DNA of 34,761 bases from NCBI GenBank assembly GCA_016928395.1, contig JAFGKV010000300.1:1-34761 (forward strand), given 5' to 3'. Within the stretch, counting starts at the first letter, position 1, and the number at the start of each line of letters is the position of its first letter. The notes below the pieces were generated by a model. It made no database searches, was not told the DNA's origin, and was given only the letters and a program-made list of their open reading frames with translations. A program made the translations under genes and the position numbers. Shown here one piece after another: positions 26,356-34,625 of this stretch. Source of the DNA: Candidatus Fermentibacterota bacterium. Lineage in GTDB: Bacteria > JAFGKV01.

Positions 26356-28707
26356 ATGTTCCGAGTGCTCATCGCCTGCTGTGCAGGAGCGGCCGTTTTG
26401 TTGAGTTGTGGCCATGTCGGCATGTATGGCGGGCAGAATGCTGCCATTGCCGAGGCTGAACTTGACGCGGCGGAAGCACAGCTTGCCCTGGCCCGCGAGC
26501 TGGTTGCTGCAGGCGCTCCCGCAGGCGCGGCATCGGCCTATCGGACGGCGCTGGAGCTTATCGCGGCGGAAGAACTGCCTGAGAAGCTCCAAGGTCGTGC
26601 CGAAGAACTGGCCGAGGCAATTCTCGATGAGTACCATCTGCTCTTGTCGACAATGCCATCGCTGCCTGGCGAGACGCCCGCGTGGGCGGTTATGGCCGAG
26701 ATGGACAGCGCTGCGGTGGATGCAGGCACCTTCGCTCCGCTGGGCGACGGTAGAGCCTATGACATGCCCGTGATCATGAACGACAAGGTTGCCAGGGTCA
26801 TCAGCTATTTTTCCAACAAGGGTAGAAAGCCTCTCACCGTGTGGCTTGAACGGATGGGTATGTATGAAGCCATCATCCGTCCCATCCTTCGTGAACACGG
26901 CCTACCGCAAGACCTGATCTATCTGGCGATGATCGAGAGCGGCTTCAACACCCGGGCCCAGAGCTATGCCCGGGCGGTTGGGCCATGGCAGTTTATCGCG
27001 GGTACCGCGCGGCGGCATGATCTTCGGATTACTCCATGGGTGGACGAACGCCGCGACATCGTGAAATCAACCCATGCGGCATGCCGCTACCTAAAGGCGC
27101 TTTACGAGCAGTTCGGATCATGGGAACTGGCCATGGCAGGCTACAACTGCGGTGAAGGCAAGGTCGAACGGCATGTGAAGCAGTACAAGACCGACGACTA
27201 CTGGAAGCTCCACAGGCTGCCGCGACAGACGAGAGACTATGTGCCGACCTTCATGGGCGCCATGATTATTGCCAAGTCGCCAGGGCAATATGGGTTTTCC
27301 GTCGAACCACTTCCCCTCATGGAGTGGGACGATGTCGAACTGGAGGAATGCACCACCTTGGATGTGGCGGCCCGGTGTGCGGGGACGACGATGGAGGAGA
27401 TGGAGCTTCTGAACGCCGAGTTGCGCCGGGGTTGCACGCCTCCGGATGAGCGGTATGTCCTTCGAGTCCCCAAGGGCAGCGCTGAGCGCTTCAGGGACGA
27501 GTATGCCAAGATACCCGACGAGGAGAAGGCAACCTGGGCCCATCATCGCGTGGTGCGGGGCGAGACCCTTTCACGCATCGCCAGACGGTATGGGACCACC
27601 GTGGACGCCATCAAAGATCTGAACGGACTTCGCAGCACCCACATGATTCGTGAGGGCGCGGAGTTGGTAATCCCCATTCCCCGGGGTGCCGGTGCCGCCC
27701 GGGTCGCCAGTGTGCCGTTCTACCAGCACGGGGACGAGACGACCTACCGCGTCCGCAGAGGAGACACCCTCGGCAGGATAGCCTCGAGATACGGAACCAC
27801 GGTCACACAAATCTGCCGATGGAATGGGCTGACCACGGATTCCGTCATCTATCCCGGCCAGACTGTCCGCCTGTGGCCTTCCGAGGCTGTACCGGCGACA
27901 GAGACCACATCCACGACGCCGTCGGCGCCCCAGACGGGTATGGGCTATGTGGTGAAGCGAGGAGAGACATTGGGCGGGATTGCGCAGCGGCATGGTGTGT
28001 CAATCAATACCCTTCGAGAAGCCAACGGGATTCGGGGGAGCAGGATCTACACCGGCCAGACGCTGCGGATTCCTGGCGTTGAGTCTCCCGCTCCTGACAG
28101 CCCCGAACCCGTGCTGGCCGAGGCGCCGTCTCCACAACTGAATCATGGCGGGCCCTCGGTTTCTGCGCCTGTCGCGTCGTCCAGAGGCGAGGACGGGACG
28201 GGCAAAGTTACCTACACCGTGAAGACGGGCGACAGTCTGGATCGAATCGCCCGGCAGCATGGGACCTCCGTGGAAGCGCTTCGGCAGGCCAATGCCATAA
28301 AGGGAAGCCGGATTTATGCGGGCCAGGTCGTCCTCATACCGGTTGGGGGCGCGGTTGCGGCCCAGCCCGCGGCGTCGTACGTGGTGCGTCGTGGCGATTC
28401 GCTGGCGCGGATCGCCACGAAGTTCGGTGTGACGGTGGATGCCCTCCGGCGCTCCAATGCCCTCCGCGGAACCGTGATTCACCCAGGACAGAAGCTCACC
28501 ATTCCCGCCACCCGTCCGGCTTCAGGCGATCTCATCTACACCGTGCGCCGGGGGGACTCTCTCTCTGCTATCGCGCGGCGATTCGGAGTGACCAGCGGCG
28601 ATATTGCCCAATGGAACGGCATCGCGTCCAACGCCGTCATCTATCCAGGAACCACACTCACCATCCGTGCCTCGCGGGACGCTTCCACCCCGGCCCTGGG
28701 GGGCTGA
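26356..28707 (+). CDS. mltD: MltD-like lytic transglycosylase lipoprotein with six LysM domains
   Basis: Lipobox-like VLLSC; SLT motifs AMIESGFN, AVGPWQF, AGYNCG, TRDYVP; six Y/HxVxxGD/ExLxxIA LysM repeats. Confidence 0.88.
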   Translation: MFRVLIACCAGAAVLLSCGHVGMYGGQNAAIAEAELDAAEAQLALARELVAAGAPAGAASAYRTALELIAAEELPEKLQGRAEELAEAILDEYHLLLSTMPSLPGETPAWAVMAEMDSAAVDAGTFAPLGDGRAYDMPVIMNDKVARVISYFSNKGRKPLTVWLERMGMYEAIIRPILREHGLPQDLIYLAMIESGFNTRAQSYARAVGPWQFIAGTARRHDLRITPWVDERRDIVKSTHAACRYLKALYEQFGSWELAMAGYNCGEGKVERHVKQYKTDDYWKLHRLPRQTRDYVPTFMGAMIIAKSPGQYGFSVEPLPLMEWDDVELEECTTLDVAARCAGTTMEEMELLNAELRRGCTPPDERYVLRVPKGSAERFRDEYAKIPDEEKATWAHHRVVRGETLSRIARRYGTTVDAIKDLNGLRSTHMIREGAELVIPIPRGAGAARVASVPFYQHGDETTYRVRRGDTLGRIASRYGTTVTQICRWNGLTTDSVIYPGQTVRLWPSEAVPATETTSTTPSAPQTGMGYVVKRGETLGGIAQRHGVSINTLREANGIRGSRIYTGQTLRIPGVESPAPDSPEPVLAEAPSPQLNHGGPSVSAPVASSRGEDGTGKVTYTVKTGDSLDRIARQHGTSVEALRQANAIKGSRIYAGQVVLIPVGGAVAAQPAASYVVRRGDSLARIATKFGVTVDALRRSNALRGTVIHPGQKLTIPATRPASGDLIYTVRRGDSLSAIARRFGVTSGDIAQWNGIASNAVIYPGTTLTIRASRDASTPALGG

Positions 28708-28756
28708 GCATGGCCGGCGTTCCCGGCCGGCCTTGGGCGGCGTCGTGGAAGTCCTG

Positions 28757-30229
28757 ATGAAGGGTCTTCTCTTGCGTGGCATGTTCCGTCGCCCGCTACG
28801 CCTGGCCACGGCCGGGGCCGTCTTGGCTGCCTTGGCGTGTGCCGGCGCGTGGCCGCGCGGCCGTTCCCACGATGGAGAGTGGCTGCGCCGGCAGGCGGAG
28901 CTCGCCATGGAGCCACTGGTGTCCCAAGGGGCAAGCTGGGGCGCCGTGGTAGTCGAGGAAACGGGGGCGGTGATAATGCGGCACAATGCCGCCGCGCTCT
29001 TTGTTCCCGCCTCCAACCTCAAGGTGGTCACCACCGCATGTGCCCTGGAAAGGTTGGGGCCAGAGCACTGCTTTCTGACCCTTCTGGCGCTAGAAGGAGC
29101 AGTCCGTGGTGACACAGCCTTCGCCGACCTCGTCATCATAGGCGGGGGAGACCCGTCGTTCGCCAGCCGGTACACCGACGGTGGCGTGCTGACGGCCTGG
29201 TGCGACAGTGTTCGGGCGCGGGGCATACGGGTCATCACCGGAGGGGTGTTGGGATGCGCCGACTATTTGCCCCAGGGGACTCCCGGGGTCGGATGGGCGT
29301 GGGATGACCTGGCCTTCGCCTTTTCCGCGCCGACCTCCGGTCTTTGTTTCCGCGACAATGCCGCTGATGTTTCACTCATGCCGACAAGGCCGGGAAATCC
29401 CGTACAGATGACGGTGGAGCCCGTCGGCGCAGCGGGGGATATCTCCTGCACCGCCATCACCGGCGAAGCGGGCGTCGTGAGGTCGCTTCGCCTGCGGTGG
29501 CCGCCGGGGGCCAGGGGTACCGTTCTCTCCGGTGTACTTCCGTGCGATGAACGAGCAGCGATGTTCTCGGTGGCGAGCGCGGAGCCCGCGCGGCTCGCTG
29601 CGGAAGGACTGCGGCGTGTGCTGGAGGCCGGAGGCATCACGGTGCTGGGCGATGCCCGGGCGGGATGCAAAGTCGCGAGGGTCCACCTTGCCTCCCACGT
29701 CTCACCTCCGCTGAGGGAGATCGTCAGCGTGGTCAACCGCATGAGCCAGAATACGTGGGCCGAGCAGCTTCTGCGCATTCTGGGACGGGAGTCCGGCGAC
29801 GGTAGTGTCGAGGCCGGGATCGCAGTCGTCGAGGAGACGCTGGACGGTCTGGGTGTCAGCCGTTCAGGCATGCGCGTGGTCGACGGCAGCGGTCTCTCCC
29901 GGCTTAACTTGGTCTCGCCGTCATTTATGGTGGGATTACTGCTTCGGGCCGGTGAGCGGGCCTGGGGCGAGGACCTGCGGAAGAGCCTTGCCGTTGCGGG
30001 TCAGAGCGGTACTCTAGAGGATCGCATGATCGGGAGCGTTGCCGAGGGCCGAGTCTTGGCCAAAACAGGAACGATGCAGGGATGCCGGAGCCTCTCCGGG
30101 TATGCGACCACGGTGGGCGGCGACGAACTCGTATTCTCCCTCATGGTGAACGGGTATCCCGGCCCTGGGGCCGTCATCGACCGCGCCCTGGATCGTTTCT
30201 GCAGCCTCCTGGTCATGTGTGATCCCTGA
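28757..30229 (+). CDS. dacB: D-alanyl-D-alanine carboxypeptidase/endopeptidase PBP4 (peptidase S13)
   Basis: PASNLK (SxxK), GGGDPS, GWAWDD, SQN (SxN), DGSGLSRLN, AKTG. Start approximate. Confidence 0.9.
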   Translation: MKGLLLRGMFRRPLRLATAGAVLAALACAGAWPRGRSHDGEWLRRQAELAMEPLVSQGASWGAVVVEETGAVIMRHNAAALFVPASNLKVVTTACALERLGPEHCFLTLLALEGAVRGDTAFADLVIIGGGDPSFASRYTDGGVLTAWCDSVRARGIRVITGGVLGCADYLPQGTPGVGWAWDDLAFAFSAPTSGLCFRDNAADVSLMPTRPGNPVQMTVEPVGAAGDISCTAITGEAGVVRSLRLRWPPGARGTVLSGVLPCDERAAMFSVASAEPARLAAEGLRRVLEAGGITVLGDARAGCKVARVHLASHVSPPLREIVSVVNRMSQNTWAEQLLRILGRESGDGSVEAGIAVVEETLDGLGVSRSGMRVVDGSGLSRLNLVSPSFMVGLLLRAGERAWGEDLRKSLAVAGQSGTLEDRMIGSVAEGRVLAKTGTMQGCRSLSGYATTVGGDELVFSLMVNGYPGPGAVIDRALDRFCSLLVMCDP

Positions 30230-30380: not shown

Positions 30381-31748
30381 TCACTGTGCACGCAGGTGCA
30401 CAACGGCCTCCTCGAGAGTGAGTTCCTGCTGGGTTCGCGTGCGCAGGTCGCGGAGCGCAACGATGCCGCGGGCGCGCTCGTCCTCGCCTTGGATCAGTAG
30501 GTACGGGATTTCCCTCTGCGCGGCATAGGCGATCTGATGCCGGAACGAGAAACCCTCACCCATGTACAGTTCCGAAGGGATACCGGCACACCTCAGAAGC
30601 GATGCCAGGCCGTACATGCGCGGTCGCTCTTCAGGGTTCAACACTGCCACCACCACCCGGCACACGGATCCGGACGCCGGGAACGCCTGCAAGGTCTGGA
30701 GCACCACTAGGAGGCGGTCGACCCCCATAGAGACTCCAGTGGCGGGAATGCTGCGTCCGAGGAAGTGGCCTATGAGCCCGTCATAGCGGCCTCCACCCAT
30801 GACCGAGCCGAAGCCCTCCTGCCCGATGACAACGGTTTCGAATACGGGGCCGGTGTAGTAATCAAGCCCACGGGCCAGCGAAGGCATGACCCTGACGTAG
30901 TCGGGGTGAGGGAGCGCCGCGCTGGACAGATACTCTAGGATTGAGGAAATCTCCCGAAGCCCCCGCGCCGTTTCGTCGGGACCGTGGAGCAACCTTGAGG
31001 CCTCTTCCATCACCCTGTCGGACGTACCGGAGATGGTCAGGATGCGCTCCACGAGTTCGATCTTCCCCGCCGCGAGTCCAAGCCCGCCTTCAGAGGGAGG
31101 CGCTCCTATCAGAGCCAGCAGCTTCTCAGTTCCGATCTTGTCGTGCTTATCCAACACGCGGAAGAACTCCAGTTGAGCCTCCGGCGCACCCAGGCCCAGA
31201 ACGCGGGCCACGCCTGCCAGCAGGCTTCGTGAGGAAATCCGTATCTCGAAGCCGGGAACACCCAAGGCATCAAGGCTCCGGTAGATGACCTCCACGATTT
31301 CCGCATCGGCGACGGGATCGCTGATTCCTACGGTATCAACGTCGAACTGCAGGAACTGACGGAACCTGCCCCGCTGGGGCCTCTCGCCGCGCCACACGTA
31401 GCCCGACTGGTAGCGTTTGAACGGCATGGGAAGCCGGTCAATGTTGTGGGCCAGATAACGGGCGAGAGACGCCGTTAGTTCGAAGCGCAACGCCAACGCC
31501 GATTCGGGTGTGGGCATCTCGTCCCTGCAGAGCCGGTAGATCTGTTTCTCACCGCCCTCGCCGTGACCCGACACAAGGATCTGGTAGTACTCCACGCAGG
31601 AGGTGTCCAACGGGACGAAACCGTGGGACTCGTAGACCTTGCAGACCGTCTCGATCATCCTCTTCTGGGCTGCAGCCTCCTCAGGGCTGAGGTCTCTGAA
31701 TCCCGAAGGCAGCCGCGGCTCAATGCGTCGTTCAGTACTCTGGATCAT
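30381..31748 (-). CDS. hisS: Histidine--tRNA ligase
   Basis: PSGFRD, ALRFELTASLARY, RGERPQRGRFRQF, ARGLDYYTG, GGGRYDGL, and a C-terminal anticodon-binding domain. Confidence 0.95.
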   Translation of the reverse strand: MIQSTERRIEPRLPSGFRDLSPEEAAAQKRMIETVCKVYESHGFVPLDTSCVEYYQILVSGHGEGGEKQIYRLCRDEMPTPESALALRFELTASLARYLAHNIDRLPMPFKRYQSGYVWRGERPQRGRFRQFLQFDVDTVGISDPVADAEIVEVIYRSLDALGVPGFEIRISSRSLLAGVARVLGLGAPEAQLEFFRVLDKHDKIGTEKLLALIGAPPSEGGLGLAAGKIELVERILTISGTSDRVMEEASRLLHGPDETARGLREISSILEYLSSAALPHPDYVRVMPSLARGLDYYTGPVFETVVIGQEGFGSVMGGGRYDGLIGHFLGRSIPATGVSMGVDRLLVVLQTLQAFPASGSVCRVVVAVLNPEERPRMYGLASLLRCAGIPSELYMGEGFSFRHQIAYAAQREIPYLLIQGEDERARGIVALRDLRTRTQQELTLEEAVVHLRAQ

Positions 31749-31925: not shown

Positions 31926-33311
31926 TCAGATGCCCAGGAGTATCTTGGCTGTGGTGAAGTAGATCAAGAGCCCCGTGATGTCCACTGCGGTGGTCAGGGC
32001 GGGGCTGGCAACCACCGCCGGGTCGAGTTTGGCGCGGGCCGCCGCCAAAGGCAGTACCGCGCCGATCAGGGTCGAGGTTACCACCTGCAATCCCAACGCA
32101 ATCGCGATGGCGATACCGATTGTCGCCAGAGGGTAGTTCAACGGCATACTGGAACCGCCGCCGAACAGCACTACCCTGCCGAACGCGAGCATACCGAGCA
32201 GCAGCGCGAGCAGAATCGCCACCTGGAACTCCTTGAAGAGGATGCGCAGGGCATCCCTCGGTGCGATCTCTCTGAGTGCCAGCGCCCGAATCACGAGGGT
32301 GGCCGACTGGCTTCCAGTATTGCCTCCCGTATCGGCCACCATGGGCATGAACGCCGCCAGGATAGCGAACTGCATCAGCAGGCCCTCGAAACTCTGGACG
32401 ATGAACCCGGAGACCAGGCCCAGCACCGCCAATGCCGCCACCCACGGCGCGCGGTTCCTGAAATGCACCCAGGGAGGGGTTCGCATATACATCGCTTCCT
32501 CGTGGCTACCGGCGATGGCCATGAATTTCTCCATGTCCTCGGTGTGTTCCTGGGTGATGATGTCGATAGCATCGTCATACGTCACGATTCCCACCAGGGC
32601 ATCAGCGCCATCGATCACGGGCAACGCGAGCAGGTCGTACTTCTGGATCTTGCGCGCTGCATCTTCCTGGTCGTCGTCCACCCGGGCGGACACGGCATCG
32701 CGGTGCATCAGATCACTCACCCTCGCATCCCGCTTGGCGACGATGAGATCCTTGAGAGACACAAAGCCCAGGAGCCGGCGATTCTCATCCACGACATAGG
32801 CGTAGTAGATGGTCTCTCGATCCGGTGCGATCTCCCGGAGGCGCTCTATGGCCTGTGCGGCGGTCAGGTGCGGGCCCAGGGTGGCATAATCCGAGGTCAT
32901 GGCCGCGCCGGCGGTTCCTTCCTCGTACGAGGCCAGACGGCGGATATCCTCCCGTTCCGCCTGGGCCAATGCGGGCAGCACGGCTTCGCGACTATCCTCA
33001 GGCAGGCGCCTGAACAAATCGGCCCGATCATCCGGCGGCATCTCCGTCATCAGGCGAGCAATGTCTTGGCGATGGAGGGTCGCGATTATGTCGGCTTGGA
33101 TATCGTCGGCCATATGGCTGAAGATCTCGGCGCGAAGAGGCAGATCGGCGTGCGTGAGCACGGCCCAGGCATCTTCCTCCGAAAGCGCGGACGCCAACTC
33201 GGCCACGACGGCGGGATGAAGGGTTTCGCAGAAATCACGGAGTGCGTCGGTGTCCCCACCCGCGAGCATCGTGCGGAGCTCGGGGACAAGAAGAGGATTC
33301 TTCATCGTCAT
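31926..33311 (-). CDS. mgtE: Magnesium transporter MgtE
   Basis: N domain, CBS pair (ETIYYAYVVD, KYDLLALPV), RAPW, ADTGGNTGSQS, DPAVVASPALTTAVDITG. Confidence 0.95.
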   Translation of the reverse strand: MTMKNPLLVPELRTMLAGGDTDALRDFCETLHPAVVAELASALSEEDAWAVLTHADLPLRAEIFSHMADDIQADIIATLHRQDIARLMTEMPPDDRADLFRRLPEDSREAVLPALAQAEREDIRRLASYEEGTAGAAMTSDYATLGPHLTAAQAIERLREIAPDRETIYYAYVVDENRRLLGFVSLKDLIVAKRDARVSDLMHRDAVSARVDDDQEDAARKIQKYDLLALPVIDGADALVGIVTYDDAIDIITQEHTEDMEKFMAIAGSHEEAMYMRTPPWVHFRNRAPWVAALAVLGLVSGFIVQSFEGLLMQFAILAAFMPMVADTGGNTGSQSATLVIRALALREIAPRDALRILFKEFQVAILLALLLGMLAFGRVVLFGGGSSMPLNYPLATIGIAIAIALGLQVVTSTLIGAVLPLAAARAKLDPAVVASPALTTAVDITGLLIYFTTAKILLGI

Positions 33312-33401
33312 GGTTCACCTCTCTTTCGGCCGCGACGCGGGGGCGGCCGGAGGTGAACCGGCAGGCTATGCTTCGATCGAGCGCCGGCAGTTCACATCAC
33401 C
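33312..33401 (-). promoter_or_regulatory. RBS-sequestering hairpin and competing stem in the mgtE leader
   Basis: mRNA GGUUCACCUC-CGGCCGC...GCGGCCG-aaaga-GAGGUGAACC-AUG. Upstream GAUGUGAACUGCCGGC can instead pair imperfectly with GCCUGCCGGUUCACCUC. Confidence 0.7.
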
Positions 33402-33500
33402 AGCCCCGCAACACAGGCATCGGGGGCCAGAGTCGTCAGTTTTGTGGTTCGTCTCCTGGGTCATCCGGCGGCAACTATGGCCACCATCCGAGTCACCCAC
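33366..33500 (-). CDS. Putative 44-aa mgtE leader peptide (upstream ORF)
   Basis: AGGAG RBS 8 nt before a GTG. Sequence MGDSDGGHSCRRMTQETNHKTDDSGPRCLCCGAGDVNCRRSIEA*. The stop abuts the anti-SD strand. Confidence 0.5.
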   Translation of the reverse strand: MGDSDGGHSCRRMTQETNHKTDDSGPRCLCCGAGDVNCRRSIEA

Positions 33501-33559
33501 GGCGATTTCTCCTGTTGGTGTAGGTCGTGAGCGCTCCCCGCGCTCGTAAGGGTCGCGAC

Positions 33560-33588
33560 ATAGTACACAGCACACCCCCCGAGGGCAA
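33560..33588 (-). promoter_or_regulatory. Putative sigma70 promoter for mgtE
   Basis: TTGCCC-N17-TACTAT on the minus strand, implying a leader of about 240 nt. Confidence 0.6.
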
Positions 33589-33965
33589 CCCCGAGATGGC
33601 GTCTCAGCGGCTCCCATCCGCGTCGTATAATCCGCCTTGCTACGGCGGTCGCAGATCATCCTTGTCCGTCGCGGGCTGGTGTCGTGGTGGTCTCAGGGCC
33701 ACGTCACCACGTGGCCTTGTCCCACGGTCTGCGCGGATAGCCTGAGCCCAGGAAGATGGGCCGACGCGGAACAAGGACGATTAGGCCAGGTGTTTCATGG
33801 TAGATCAGACCCTTGTGCGCGGGCATCTCCCCGCGTACGGCACCCGAGGTTCTCGGGGTGGGCGGGGTTGACTTGGTCTCGCACCCCACCCCTACCCTTG
33901 CCATCTTGACTGCGAAGTGCGTGGCAAGGACAGAGATCGGGAAGAGTTCGCGCTCACCGTGGCCC

Positions 33966-34625
33966 ATGGCCGTGACGGTGGGTTCCTTCGTCATGTCTAC
34001 GTATGAAGTGACCCAGGCTGAGTATCAGGATGTCATGGGCACGAATCCATCGCACTTCCCTGGGGCAGAGCGGCCGGTGGAGCGGGTGACATGGTGGAAT
34101 GCGGCCTTGTTCTGCAACGCACTGAGTGTGCGGGAGGGCCTCACCGCCTTCTACAACGATGGCGATCTGACCGCCCAGGGAGACACGGTACGCATGGATT
34201 GGAGTGCAGACGGGTATCGACTTCCCACGGAAGCGGAGTGGGAGTATGCGTGCCGCGCCGGGACGACCACTGATTTCTACAGCGGCAGTCAATCATCGTC
34301 TCGCCATGATCAGAACATGGATCTGATTGGGTGGTACTGGTTCAACTCAGAATGGAGTCCGCAGGATGTGGGGCAGAAGCTGCCGAACGCCTTCGGTGTG
34401 TACGACATGAGTGGAAACGTGGCGGAGTGGTGTAATGATCGCTTCGGAGCCTACTCAGCCGAGAGTCAGACCGATCCCCATGGCCCCACGTTCGGCGCGA
34501 GCCGACTCACGCGGGGAGGGAGTTGGTACAACTACCCCCAGGTCTGCCGCTCGGCCAATCGCGACCAGTACCATCCCAGCCAGGCCTACTACACGGTGGG
34601 CTTCCGCCTCGCGCGGAGGCAATGA
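33966..34625 (+). CDS. FGE-sulfatase/SUMF1-family (C-type lectin fold) protein, apparently N-terminally short
   Basis: YEVTQAEY..VMGTNPS, PVERVTW, YRLPTEAEWEYACRAG, PNAFGVYDMSGNVAEW, RGGSW, GFRLAR. The usual first strand (IPxGxFxMG..ExPxH) was not found upstream. Start uncertain. Confidence 0.8.
   Translation: MAVTVGSFVMSTYEVTQAEYQDVMGTNPSHFPGAERPVERVTWWNAALFCNALSVREGLTAFYNDGDLTAQGDTVRMDWSADGYRLPTEAEWEYACRAGTTTDFYSGSQSSSRHDQNMDLIGWYWFNSEWSPQDVGQKLPNAFGVYDMSGNVAEWCNDRFGAYSAESQTDPHGPTFGASRLTRGGSWYNYPQVCRSANRDQYHPSQAYYTVGFRLARRQ

Follow-up and report, generated by a model that had tools for sequence, protein, structure and literature searches.

How is a Mg2+ importer gene controlled where its leader carries no recognizable Mg2+ riboswitch? 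The question is raised by the mgtE locus of a Candidatus Fermentibacterota bacterium (assembly GCA_016928395.1, contig JAFGKV010000300.1), analysed here in a stretch of 34,761 nucleotides (nt), the window, on the minus strand of which mgtE begins with an AUG at 33311. An initial annotation, made from the sequence alone, proposed that the region ahead of this AUG is a Mg2+-responsive translational attenuator, in which a small upstream open reading frame (uORF) coding for an acidic peptide governs a hairpin that buries the Shine-Dalgarno sequence (SD) of mgtE. The comparative sequence analysis described here supports that interpretation: all computational checks suggested in the initial annotation favoured it, and nothing that had been named there as fatal to it was encountered. 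The uORF is conserved ahead of related mgtE genes, and the leader contains, as judged from covariation, four segments, 1 pairing with 2 and 3 pairing with 4 in a manner predicted to hide the SD, with an alternative 2:3 pairing that is predicted to free it. On balance the leader is probably a leader-peptide translational attenuator of mgtE, belonging to an undescribed family that also controls mgtA-type pumps, in which the SD would be closed after complete reading of the uORF and 2:3 would prevail upon ribosome stalling or drop-off at low Mg2+.

Results and Discussion

A conserved reading frame ahead of related mgtE genes

A search of public contigs with the MgtE protein gave loci of 56-80% identity, 80 of them in species-representative genomes and 79 in metagenomes, with labels including Desulfobacterota-type, Ignavibacteriales, Planctomycetota, Fermentibacteria, Zixibacteria and Spirochaetes, and further Aminicenantes, Marinimicrobia, Hydrogenedentota, Clostridia-type and UBP14. 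The mgtE start could be placed in 153 of the 159 loci, plus L002; removal of duplicates and of regions shorter than 250 nt left 113 distinct upstream regions, including that of the window. The phylum of the window itself is represented in the compared set by only three genomes, the remaining two of which have no close mgtE ortholog, so that close relatives yielded no comparison.

The upstream regions were scanned with a strict detector, which accepts a frame of 25-62 codons if it has an SD-like word and a start codon, if its stop lies 40-100 nt ahead of the mgtE ATG and if it codes for a peptide motif, i.e. either at least two Asp/Glu in residues 2-7 or the internal motif described below. It was positive for 71 of the 113 regions, compared with one of the 113 reverse complements and 0-1 of 113 in five shuffles; the 44-residue frame with its own SD that had been read in the window by the initial annotation is both present and conserved. 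The modal length of the uORFs is 45 codons (22 cases), and their stops mostly lie 62-64 nt ahead of the mgtE ATG. Starts are ATG (64), GTG (5) or TTG (2), stops are TAG (33), TGA (19) or TAA (19), and a GGAGGA-type SD, conserved over 64 aligned leaders, is located 6-9 nt ahead of the start codon.

The typical peptide starts with M-S-D-S-D-G-S-H-S-C, has (D/E)(D/E)-P-G-P-R-R at about residues 23-29 and ends with ...D-V-N-G-R-x-x-I-R-A. An acidic start (motif 1) is present in 61 of the 71 uORFs, the internal motif (motif 2) in 43, and both occur in one frame in 33; among the motif-1 uORFs Asp or Glu is found at residue 3 in 47 and at residue 5 in 50, and motif 2 starts at residue 23 in 30 of its 43 occurrences. 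The window peptide, which matches a profile of 28 related leader peptides with 72.5 bits (E-value 1.8e-19), has DSD at residues 3-5, DDS at residues 22-24, one Pro and four Cys, exactly as annotated. Both acidic motifs are conserved in the family, but the Cys residues mostly are not, with only Cys10 recurring (25 of 61). The initial annotation also held that similar leaders coding for DSD...DDS precede mgtE in other bacteria, which proved correct, in the form DSD...DD, for the related loci.

The strict detector misses real cases with weak SDs or variant starts, some of which are recovered by the peptide profile, e.g. Fermentibacteria-type MSESDQPPPG leaders and L043. A subfamily of Fermentibacteria-labelled and similar loci (L086, L151, L091, L089, L082 and L083) has a uORF of 31-36 codons that starts with MSESDQPPPG or MSEPDQPPPG. 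At Desulfuromonas-labelled loci an upstream gene simply terminates where the uORF would lie, and at L155 and L085, which have tandem copies and no leader, mgtE comes immediately after the 3' end of another mgtE-like gene. In an AT-rich genome (G033) the frame ahead of a 53%-identical mgtE (L003, 2877-3194, reverse strand) was rejected as unrelated; it codes for about 100 residues with four CxxCH motifs, and a Pfam search with it returned nothing.

Exclusive pairings around the mgtE Shine-Dalgarno sequence

The initial annotation had divided the 3' part of the leader into three segments: A, in the last codons of the uORF, B, and C, which contains the mgtE SD. All three are placed as claimed, but the switch has four segments rather than three, in that the 3' strand of an upstream hairpin, H2, extends A. 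Segment 1, the 5' strand of H2, has its start within the Gly-Pro codons of motif 2; segment 2 comprises the H2 3' strand together with A (33395-33383, with GUGAAC at 33395-33390), and segments 3 and 4 correspond to B and C (Table 1).

The 3:4 hairpin of the window (33359-33312) has a predicted energy of -31.3 kcal/mol, compared with -16.5 +/- 2.3 kcal/mol for shuffled sequences (z -6.31; 0 of 200 as good), and is part of the minimum free energy (MFE) structure of the whole leader. Conservation of pairing was counted on a nucleotide alignment, A1, which was made without protein guidance from the window and 63 loci (64 sequences). In this alignment the outer helix of 3:4 is 91.0% paired, with changes on both sides in 8 of 11 pairs, and the inner helix is 83.4% paired. 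The same hairpin is independently predicted by RNAalifold, with 13 pairs of which 9 are compensated, from 50 of 62 sub-sequences of suitable length (12 were dropped, mostly divergent rows, plus two near-duplicates).

The main helix of A:B is 71% paired over the 64 sequences. The H2 3' strand reads GCGGCC in the consensus and GGGGCU in the window; it can pair with GGCCGC, the inner 5' strand of 3:4, and thereby extends A:B. The resulting alternative 2:3 (this extension plus GUGAAC:GUUCAC) is 79.6% paired, compared with 30-43% for slid partners, and has a covariation score of 0.254 against 0.05-0.15, reached by none of 500 shuffles. Thus both stems named in the initial annotation, A:B and B:C, covary in the family. 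The three strands concerned (H2 3', inner 5' and inner 3') can be followed in individual leaders; they read GCAGCC, GGCUGC and GCAGUC in L077 and L079, GCGGCU, AGCCGC and GCGGCU in L147, and GUGGUA, GGCCAC and GUGGCU in L066.

Two hairpins are located further upstream within the uORF. The H2 helix (1:2) is 68.9% paired, with changes on both sides in all 6 pairs, and the family helix of H1 (GGCA/UGCC), which lies closer to the start codon, is 69.4% paired. Four counted helices together are 81.5% paired, compared with 35-54% when partners are slid; since the MAFFT alignments contain some misaligned divergent rows, the pairing percentages are probably underestimates.

With respect to energies, the two states do not differ widely: the 2:3 region has a median MFE of -24.0 kcal/mol and 3:4 one of -29.2 kcal/mol. 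In 52 of 64 leaders the stronger duplex is 3:4. Compared with shuffled versions of segment 2, the 2:3 duplex has a median z of -2.46, with 42 of 64 leaders under -2. In folds that end before segment 4, as read by eye, 2:3 was formed in the window and in 6 of 14 other leaders (L037, L128, L070, L173, L142 and L176).

Some leaders have further pairings. At the MSESD-type loci (L086, L151 and L091) there is an overlap between the A segment and the stop codon, and A pairs with the anti-SD in a local hairpin. A long-range helix, P0, which pairs codons 3-6 with a stretch just ahead of the stop, is seen in some MFE folds; it is about 61% paired and is poorly formed in the window, and it is possibly a feature of a subgroup only. 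With 2:3 formed, the anti-SD CCUCC (33349-33353) is predicted to pair with the uORF SD (33509-33513), as also in folds of L117, L033 and L128 that are cut short. On these models a single anti-SD could act as a toggle, closing the uORF in one state and mgtE in the other; since the two partners of this pairing are invariant, covariation is uninformative about it.

Selection on the peptide and on the RNA

Conservation of the uORF could reflect its peptide, its RNA or both. All pairs of sequences in A1 were therefore compared in three frames. At codons 1-12, frame 0 has a synonymous fraction of 0.222 and a mean BLOSUM score of +0.735 for differing codons, with no stops, compared with 0.111/0.146, -0.14/-0.33 and 680/4232 pairs with stops in frames 1/2. 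At codons 27-45, the frames are alike (0.117, compared with 0.103 and 0.115). The acidic columns of motif 2 vary at the third codon position only, as judged from a codon alignment of 30 members (GAC, GAT, GAA and GAG). The DNA of the motif in distant leaders (GAY GAY CCN GGM CCG CGA) likewise differs mainly at third positions, and distant subfamilies retain one motif while the remaining peptide is different. The DSD and DD(S/P)GP elements on which the initial annotation relied are thus kept in frame with synonymous variation.

The same codon alignment has a near-fixed choice of codons at G-S-H-S-C (residues 6-10) and at P-G-P-R. These codons lie in the conserved helices H1 and H2, and part of the apparent conservation of the peptide is therefore RNA constraint. 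The substitution patterns accordingly indicate a leader that is read as protein and as RNA, in different parts, with both motifs apparently under selection at the amino-acid level.

Association with Mg2+ importer genes

Whole genomes were searched with the leader peptide profile, and three taxon samples gave 16 genomes with a match: 7 of 401 in the phylum to which a Desulfobacterota-type carrier belongs, 1 of 301 in that of a Planctomycetota-labelled carrier, which is itself the match, and 8 of 285 (two being carriers already known) in the class of an Ignavibacteriales-labelled carrier. None of 400 genomes matched in the class of a Gammaproteobacteria-labelled metagenome-assembled genome (MAG). 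The profile matches once per carrier genome; a second match in the window's own genome (E-value 2.7e-4) was rejected as antisense to recA.

In all 16 matching genomes the leader is located at a Mg2+ importer gene. In ten it is followed by a close mgtE (7 verified by tblastn, 3 within mgtE loci fetched earlier), in two by a distant mgtE (34-35% identity) with a 49-codon frame between, and in four by a gene for a Mg2+-translocating P-type ATPase (mgtA-type). The N-terminal 430-497 residues of the four ATPases score highest with TIGR01524 (462-552 bits), and the Pfam domains E1-E2_ATPase and Cation_ATPase_N are present; an SD-hiding hairpin directly precedes the pump start codon at three of these four loci. 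The presence of the leader ahead of mgtA-type pumps also supports the link with Mg2+.

At the fourth mgtA-type locus, L197 (about 1580-1815), the hairpin lies about 160 nt upstream of the pump ATG and not on the SD, and the read-out there may differ. At the two loci with a distant mgtE (L219 and L220, reverse strand, about 1500-1900 in leader orientation), the leader and its SD-hiding hairpin are followed by the 49-codon frame (MRNQTFAPDF... and MKNQTALPVT..., respectively), and mgtE starts about 40 nt past the stop of this frame, which could be a second relay uORF or a remnant.

Absence of known RNA and protein families

The initial annotation recognized neither an M-box nor any other known riboswitch in the leader, and searches with family models agree with it. 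Rfam, used with permissive filters on 33200-33800, gave chance-level matches only, the best cis-regulatory one scoring 21.7 bits against a gathering score of 55; the M-box model (RF00380; gathering score 44 bits) gave no match in the same interval at an E-value of up to 10. Over the whole window Rfam at the gathering score returned one tRNA and no M-box. An M-box is absent from the window's own genome, which is 94% complete, whereas the control genomes of B. subtilis and L. lactis were matched. No Rfam family matched nine related uORF-bearing leaders, and no M-box was found in 20 related loci without a detected uORF.

With respect to the peptide, Pfam and NCBIfam searches with ten members of the family matched no family. 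The 28-peptide profile matches 42 protein clusters in public gene sets (E-value of at most 0.001), mostly of exactly 45 residues, every one of which is unnamed or a 'hypothetical protein'.

Proposed mechanism

Since the same leader stands ahead of two unrelated kinds of Mg2+ importer in many bacteria, it is probably a ribosome-based Mg2+ sensor. We propose that it operates as follows. The polymerase reaches segment 2 earlier than segment 4, which gives 2:3 the chance to form first, and with it the SD would be open. A ribosome that reads the entire uORF would pass through segment 2 and terminate against segment 3; complete reading would thereby melt or prevent 2:3, and the stabler 3:4 would close (OFF). 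At low Mg2+, either the acidic start (M-S-D-S-D-G) or the acidic/proline motif would cause ribosomes to pause or drop off. Segment 2 would thereby be left free, 2:3 would be maintained and mgtE would be translated (ON). Pausing at the internal motif would, in addition, cover segment 1 with the ribosome and so release all of segment 2. We infer that Mg2+ is the signal, that destabilization or stalling of the ribosome senses it, that the response has the sign given above and that the choice between pairings is co-transcriptional (kinetic); the proposed sign fits the need of a Mg2+ importer, and also the Fermentibacteria-type variant, in which PPPG comes after the acidic start and A overlaps with the stop codon.

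A precedent for such a sensor is offered by previous work on MgtL. According to the accessible part of a preprint (10.1101/2021.02.02.429294), N-terminal sequences rich in Asp, Glu and Pro (D/E/P) abort translation, more so at low Mg2+, which MgtL exploits, and small residues favour the destabilization of the ribosome. The rule given there for such sequences, the intrinsic ribosome destabilization (IRD) rule (more than three D/E/P per 10-residue window, effective when N-terminal), holds for some stretch of the peptide in 61 of the 71 uORFs.

Several observations, however, weigh against the proposed mechanism. Residues 2-11 conform to the IRD rule in only 12 of the 71 uORFs, and the peptide of the window conforms to it nowhere (two D/E/P at the start, at most three elsewhere). 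Motif 2 sits behind about 22 residues, a position at which, by analogy with the counteracting effect ascribed to a preceding nascent chain in the accessible part of the same preprint (10.1101/2021.02.02.429294), destabilization would be expected to be reduced. Part of the conservation of the peptide appears to stem from the RNA constraint of H1 and H2, and codons 27-45 have no coding signature. The proposed promoter is weak, scoring below the threshold of our promoter scan (see below), and the response of the leader to Mg2+ is something that we infer.

The energetics of the window leader are also unfavourable. Its 2:3 (A:B) pairing, taken alone, has a predicted energy of -29.3 kcal/mol with a z of -1.03 (31 of 200 shuffles as good), so that the A:B stem initially put forward as the alternative is upheld by covariation across 64 sequences and not by its energy in the window. 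At equilibrium the SD of the full leader has an unpaired probability of 0.001-0.002, irrespective of whether the ribosome is absent or is placed at Asp5, Pro26 or the stop. A purely thermodynamic switch was rejected, as equilibrium folds with ribosome footprints never opened the SD; since the SD is closed at every ribosome position, the mechanism must be kinetic, and the model would therefore require kinetic trapping. The stalling attenuator proposed in the initial annotation thus gains the uORF, the exclusive covarying pairings and the association with Mg2+ importers in its favour; its kinetic nature is an addition that the equilibrium folds impose, and its Mg2+ response and sign stand as proposals.

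Alternative explanations

The same uORF and the same 2:3/3:4 anatomy might instead serve another signal, e.g. the charging of Pro- or Asp-tRNA, the activity of elongation factor P (EF-P), polyamines or translation capacity, or might work with the opposite sign by coupling at the stop codon; we consider this unlikely, although it has points in its favour. MgtL is also reported to respond to proline codons, and the Fermentibacteria-labelled subfamily has PPPG after its acidic start, which we take to be an EF-P-dependent stalling motif. The uORF stop sits only 6 nt ahead of the 3:4 helix, and a fold constrained for a terminating ribosome loses the first 3 pairs of 3:4, but even so the SD stays paired (unpaired probability 0.001), a point against this alternative. 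A precedent for that sign is the mgtQ system, in which translation of the uORF promotes translation of mgtB, as described in the accessible part of the report (PMC8092293). By contrast, the conserved 2:3 pairing of the window family uses a segment inside the uORF, and so would be useful only if ribosomes sometimes fail to reach that segment. With respect to other signals, the 16 sampled carrier genomes have the leader at Mg2+ importer genes only, with no amino-acid or polyamine genes.

It is also conceivable, but quite improbable, that the leader is an RNA-only riboswitch, in which H1, H2, the A region and possibly P0 make up an aptamer for Mg2+ or another ligand, 2:3/3:4 is the expression platform and the reading frame is secondary. 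High nucleotide conservation, the helices inside the uORF (H1 69.4%, H2 68.9% and P0 about 61% paired), the near-fixed choice of codons in these helices and the lack of a coding signature at codons 27-45 are what this explanation would lead one to expect, and a candidate mgtE motif of Thioalkalivibrio, to judge from the accessible part of its description (PMC11109978), might be a relative. It does not, however, account for a near-invariant ATG with a strong SD, for a frame that runs uninterrupted for about 45 codons to an end that is aligned across leaders and marked by any of the three stop codons, or for the frame-specific synonymous pattern at codons 1-12 and in the acidic columns of motif 2. 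The N-terminal motif is, moreover, kept in subfamilies with otherwise different RNA; Rfam has no match and P0 is poorly formed in the window.

That the small ORF, although annotated as a 45-residue hypothetical protein and represented by 42 clusters at an E-value of at most 0.001, encodes a trans-acting small protein, e.g. a transporter regulator like MgtR, MgtS or MgtU, is very improbable, given protein-like selection only at the first dozen codons and a short acidic motif, a C-terminal half shaped by RNA pairing and without a hydrophobic segment by eye, a stop locked to the RNA switch, and the absence of a Pfam or NCBIfam family for ten members.

Relation to described leaders

The translational attenuator that we favour can be compared with several described types of control. 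In attenuation of the ermC type the downstream SD is hidden by 3:4, and 2:3 can form when the ribosome is held up on the leader; in the ermC/cat and trp attenuators, which likewise have a leader peptide and the pairings 1:2, 2:3 and 3:4, the signal consists of an antibiotic or an amino acid rather than a metal, and the trp type ends in an intrinsic terminator. The window leader has the parts of the ermC/cat type, i.e. a leader ORF, a 3:4 pairing that is predicted to hold the SD and a 2:3 pairing with segment 2 inside the ORF. It differs from the trp type in that a scan of 33250-33850 gave no terminator-like site and 3:4 ends at the mgtE AUG. The M-box (ykoK, RF00380), the known regulator of mgtE, is likewise Mg2+-responsive via alternative pairing but, unlike the window leader, needs no uORF.

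MgtL of E. coli and Salmonella is likewise a translated mini-gene in the leader of a Mg2+ importer gene, mgtA, with acidic and Pro residues near its start, and there, as proposed for the window leader, the progress of the ribosome selects between alternative RNA structures. MgtL has 17 codons, and the read-out of the mgtA leader is Rho-dependent termination. By contrast, the uORF of the window family, which has no sequence relation to MgtL (Rfam, NCBIfam and Pfam being without a match), has 44-45 codons and two motifs, with an acidic start less rich in D/E/P than the MEPDP of MgtL; the predicted output of the window leader is sequestration of the SD, with no intrinsic terminator, and the family precedes mgtE as well as mgtA. 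Destabilization by MgtL is stronger at low Mg2+, turning mgtA on, according to the accessible part of the preprint (10.1101/2021.02.02.429294).

A closer parallel is MgtQ, a uORF of 8 codons between mgtC and mgtB in Salmonella, for which the accessible part of the report (PMC8092293, Choi et al. 2021) describes alternative stem-loops that free the mgtB ribosome-binding site and a requirement for Asp2 and Glu5, linked to ribosome destabilization. Only two acidic residues early in a uORF (Asp2/Glu5 there, residues 3/5 here) are thus combined in both systems with exclusive stem-loops that hide, or are predicted to hide, the ribosome-binding site of an importer gene. The systems are without sequence relation, and differ in that MgtQ, as described, is short and lies within an operon, whereas the window uORF lies in a 5' leader with four covarying segments, is 44-45 codons long and has a further motif in its interior. 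They also differ in sign, translation of the uORF promoting that of mgtB in the one case, as there reported, and completed translation being predicted to close the SD in the other.

With respect to mgtE itself, a full-text literature search found no paper describing a leader peptide ahead of the gene or the window peptide family, and the only described control elements it returned were the M-box and one riboswitch candidate from a single genus. The latter, Thioalkalivibrio's mgtE motif (SRC-65-1), has the SD/AUG at the base of a large imperfect stem, and is known from one genus (32 representatives) with several stems, no uORF being mentioned in the accessible part of the report (PMC11109978). 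Like the window leader it is located upstream of mgtE; the two were compared by description only. Mycobacterial M-box leaders with uORFs have been reported (PMC12810186, accessible part).

By analogy, then, the device would work like MgtL/mgtA, and still more like MgtQ/mgtB and attenuation of the ermC type, while by sequence it falls in no described family; what is new relative to known systems is its size, the two motifs, the four-segment architecture and the genes controlled. To our knowledge, enterobacteria are the only bacteria in which the control of Mg2+ importers by leader peptides has been worked out (MgtL, MgtP/MgtM, MgtQ and CorL). With this family, sensing of Mg2+ by the ribosome would reach many uncultured lineages as well as a second class of importer, unrelated to the first, and the natural variants of the family (acidic start only, internal motif only, PPP-containing) provide a series for the study of the Mg2+ sensitivity of nascent chains. 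In annotation, the 45-codon genes have been entered as hypothetical proteins or missed, and the leader could be mistaken for a riboswitch.

A more far-reaching proposal, which we regard as quite possible while stopping just short of calling it probable, is that a widespread, horizontally mobile cassette, consisting of the 45-codon peptide with two destabilizing/stalling motifs and the four-segment toggle, allows MgtE channels and MgtA pumps of many anaerobic/sediment phyla to be governed by the ribosome as Mg2+ sensor. If so, nascent-chain sensing of Mg2+ would be an ancient and general mode of Mg2+ homeostasis, and the leader family would be the main alternative to the M-box for mgtE. In a bolder version of this proposal, the internal DDPGP motif would be a site of programmed drop-off or peptide-bond skipping in bacteria.

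Features and genomic context of the locus

The features of the leader and the genes around it are collected in Table 1. The small 5' hairpin noted in the initial annotation is present. The promoter proposed there is present as sequence, but is too weak to be returned by a scan of 33250-33850 at a threshold of 9 of 12 consensus positions, which gave 0 sites.

Table 1. Coordinates of the mgtE leader elements and of neighbouring genes in the window.
Feature	Position	Strand	Remarks
Candidate promoter, TTGCCC (33588-33583), 17-nt spacer, TACTAT (33565-33560)	33560..33588	-	weak, 8/12 consensus positions
5' hairpin GAGCGC-GGGGA-GCGCUC	33529..33545	-	-10.3 kcal/mol, z -2.86
uORF SD, AGGAG, 8 nt ahead of GTG	33509..33513	-	GGAGGA-type SD conserved in 64-leader alignment
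uORF (leader peptide)	33366..33500	-	GTG at 33500, 44 codons, UAG 33368-33366
Motif 1, G-D-S-D-G-G, codons 2-7, acidic start with small residues	33480..33497	-	
Candidate hairpin H1, codons 4-12	33465..33491	-	in MFE fold; weak, wobble-rich in window
Motif 2, D-D-S-G-P-R, codons 22-27, window form of (D/E)(D/E)PGPR	33420..33437	-	
Hairpin H2 (segments 1:2)	33402..33428	-	-13.4 kcal/mol, z -1.87
Segment 2 (putative anti-sequestor), H2 3' strand + A, uORF codons 32-40	33383..33407	-	
Segment 3 (B), from last G of UAG stop	33343..33366	-	anti-SD GGUUCACCUCC 33359-33349, GGCCGC 33348-33343
Segment 4 (C), GCGGCC, bulge, GAGGUGAACC	33312..33333	-	mgtE SD 33321-33316; reaches AUG
mgtE, presumed target gene	31926..33311	-	461 amino acids; TIGR00400 364.9 bits, cut-off 232.75
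Histidyl-tRNA synthetase gene	30381-31748	-	neighbour
Formylglycine-generating-enzyme (FGE-sulfatase) family gene	33813-34625	+	neighbour, divergent from mgtE
Peptidase_S13 D-Ala-D-Ala carboxypeptidase gene	28604-30229	+	neighbour

None of the three neighbouring genes has an evident link with Mg2+. The mgtE of the window and its leader are nearest to those of Desulfobacterota-labelled MAGs (protein identity 78-80%), which suggests that the gene and its leader have spread horizontally; the GC content near the locus (0.59-0.68) is not atypical.

RNA data consist of assembled metatranscriptome contigs, for which strand, start and level are not given and DNA carry-over is possible; stretches without a contig carry no information. 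A 151-nt contig from another study maps to 33312-33462 with 4 differences, which does not in itself demonstrate transcription of the leader. A 249-nt contig from the source's own study maps to 33546-33794, just upstream of the proposed promoter, in the intergenic region between mgtE and the FGE-sulfatase-family gene.

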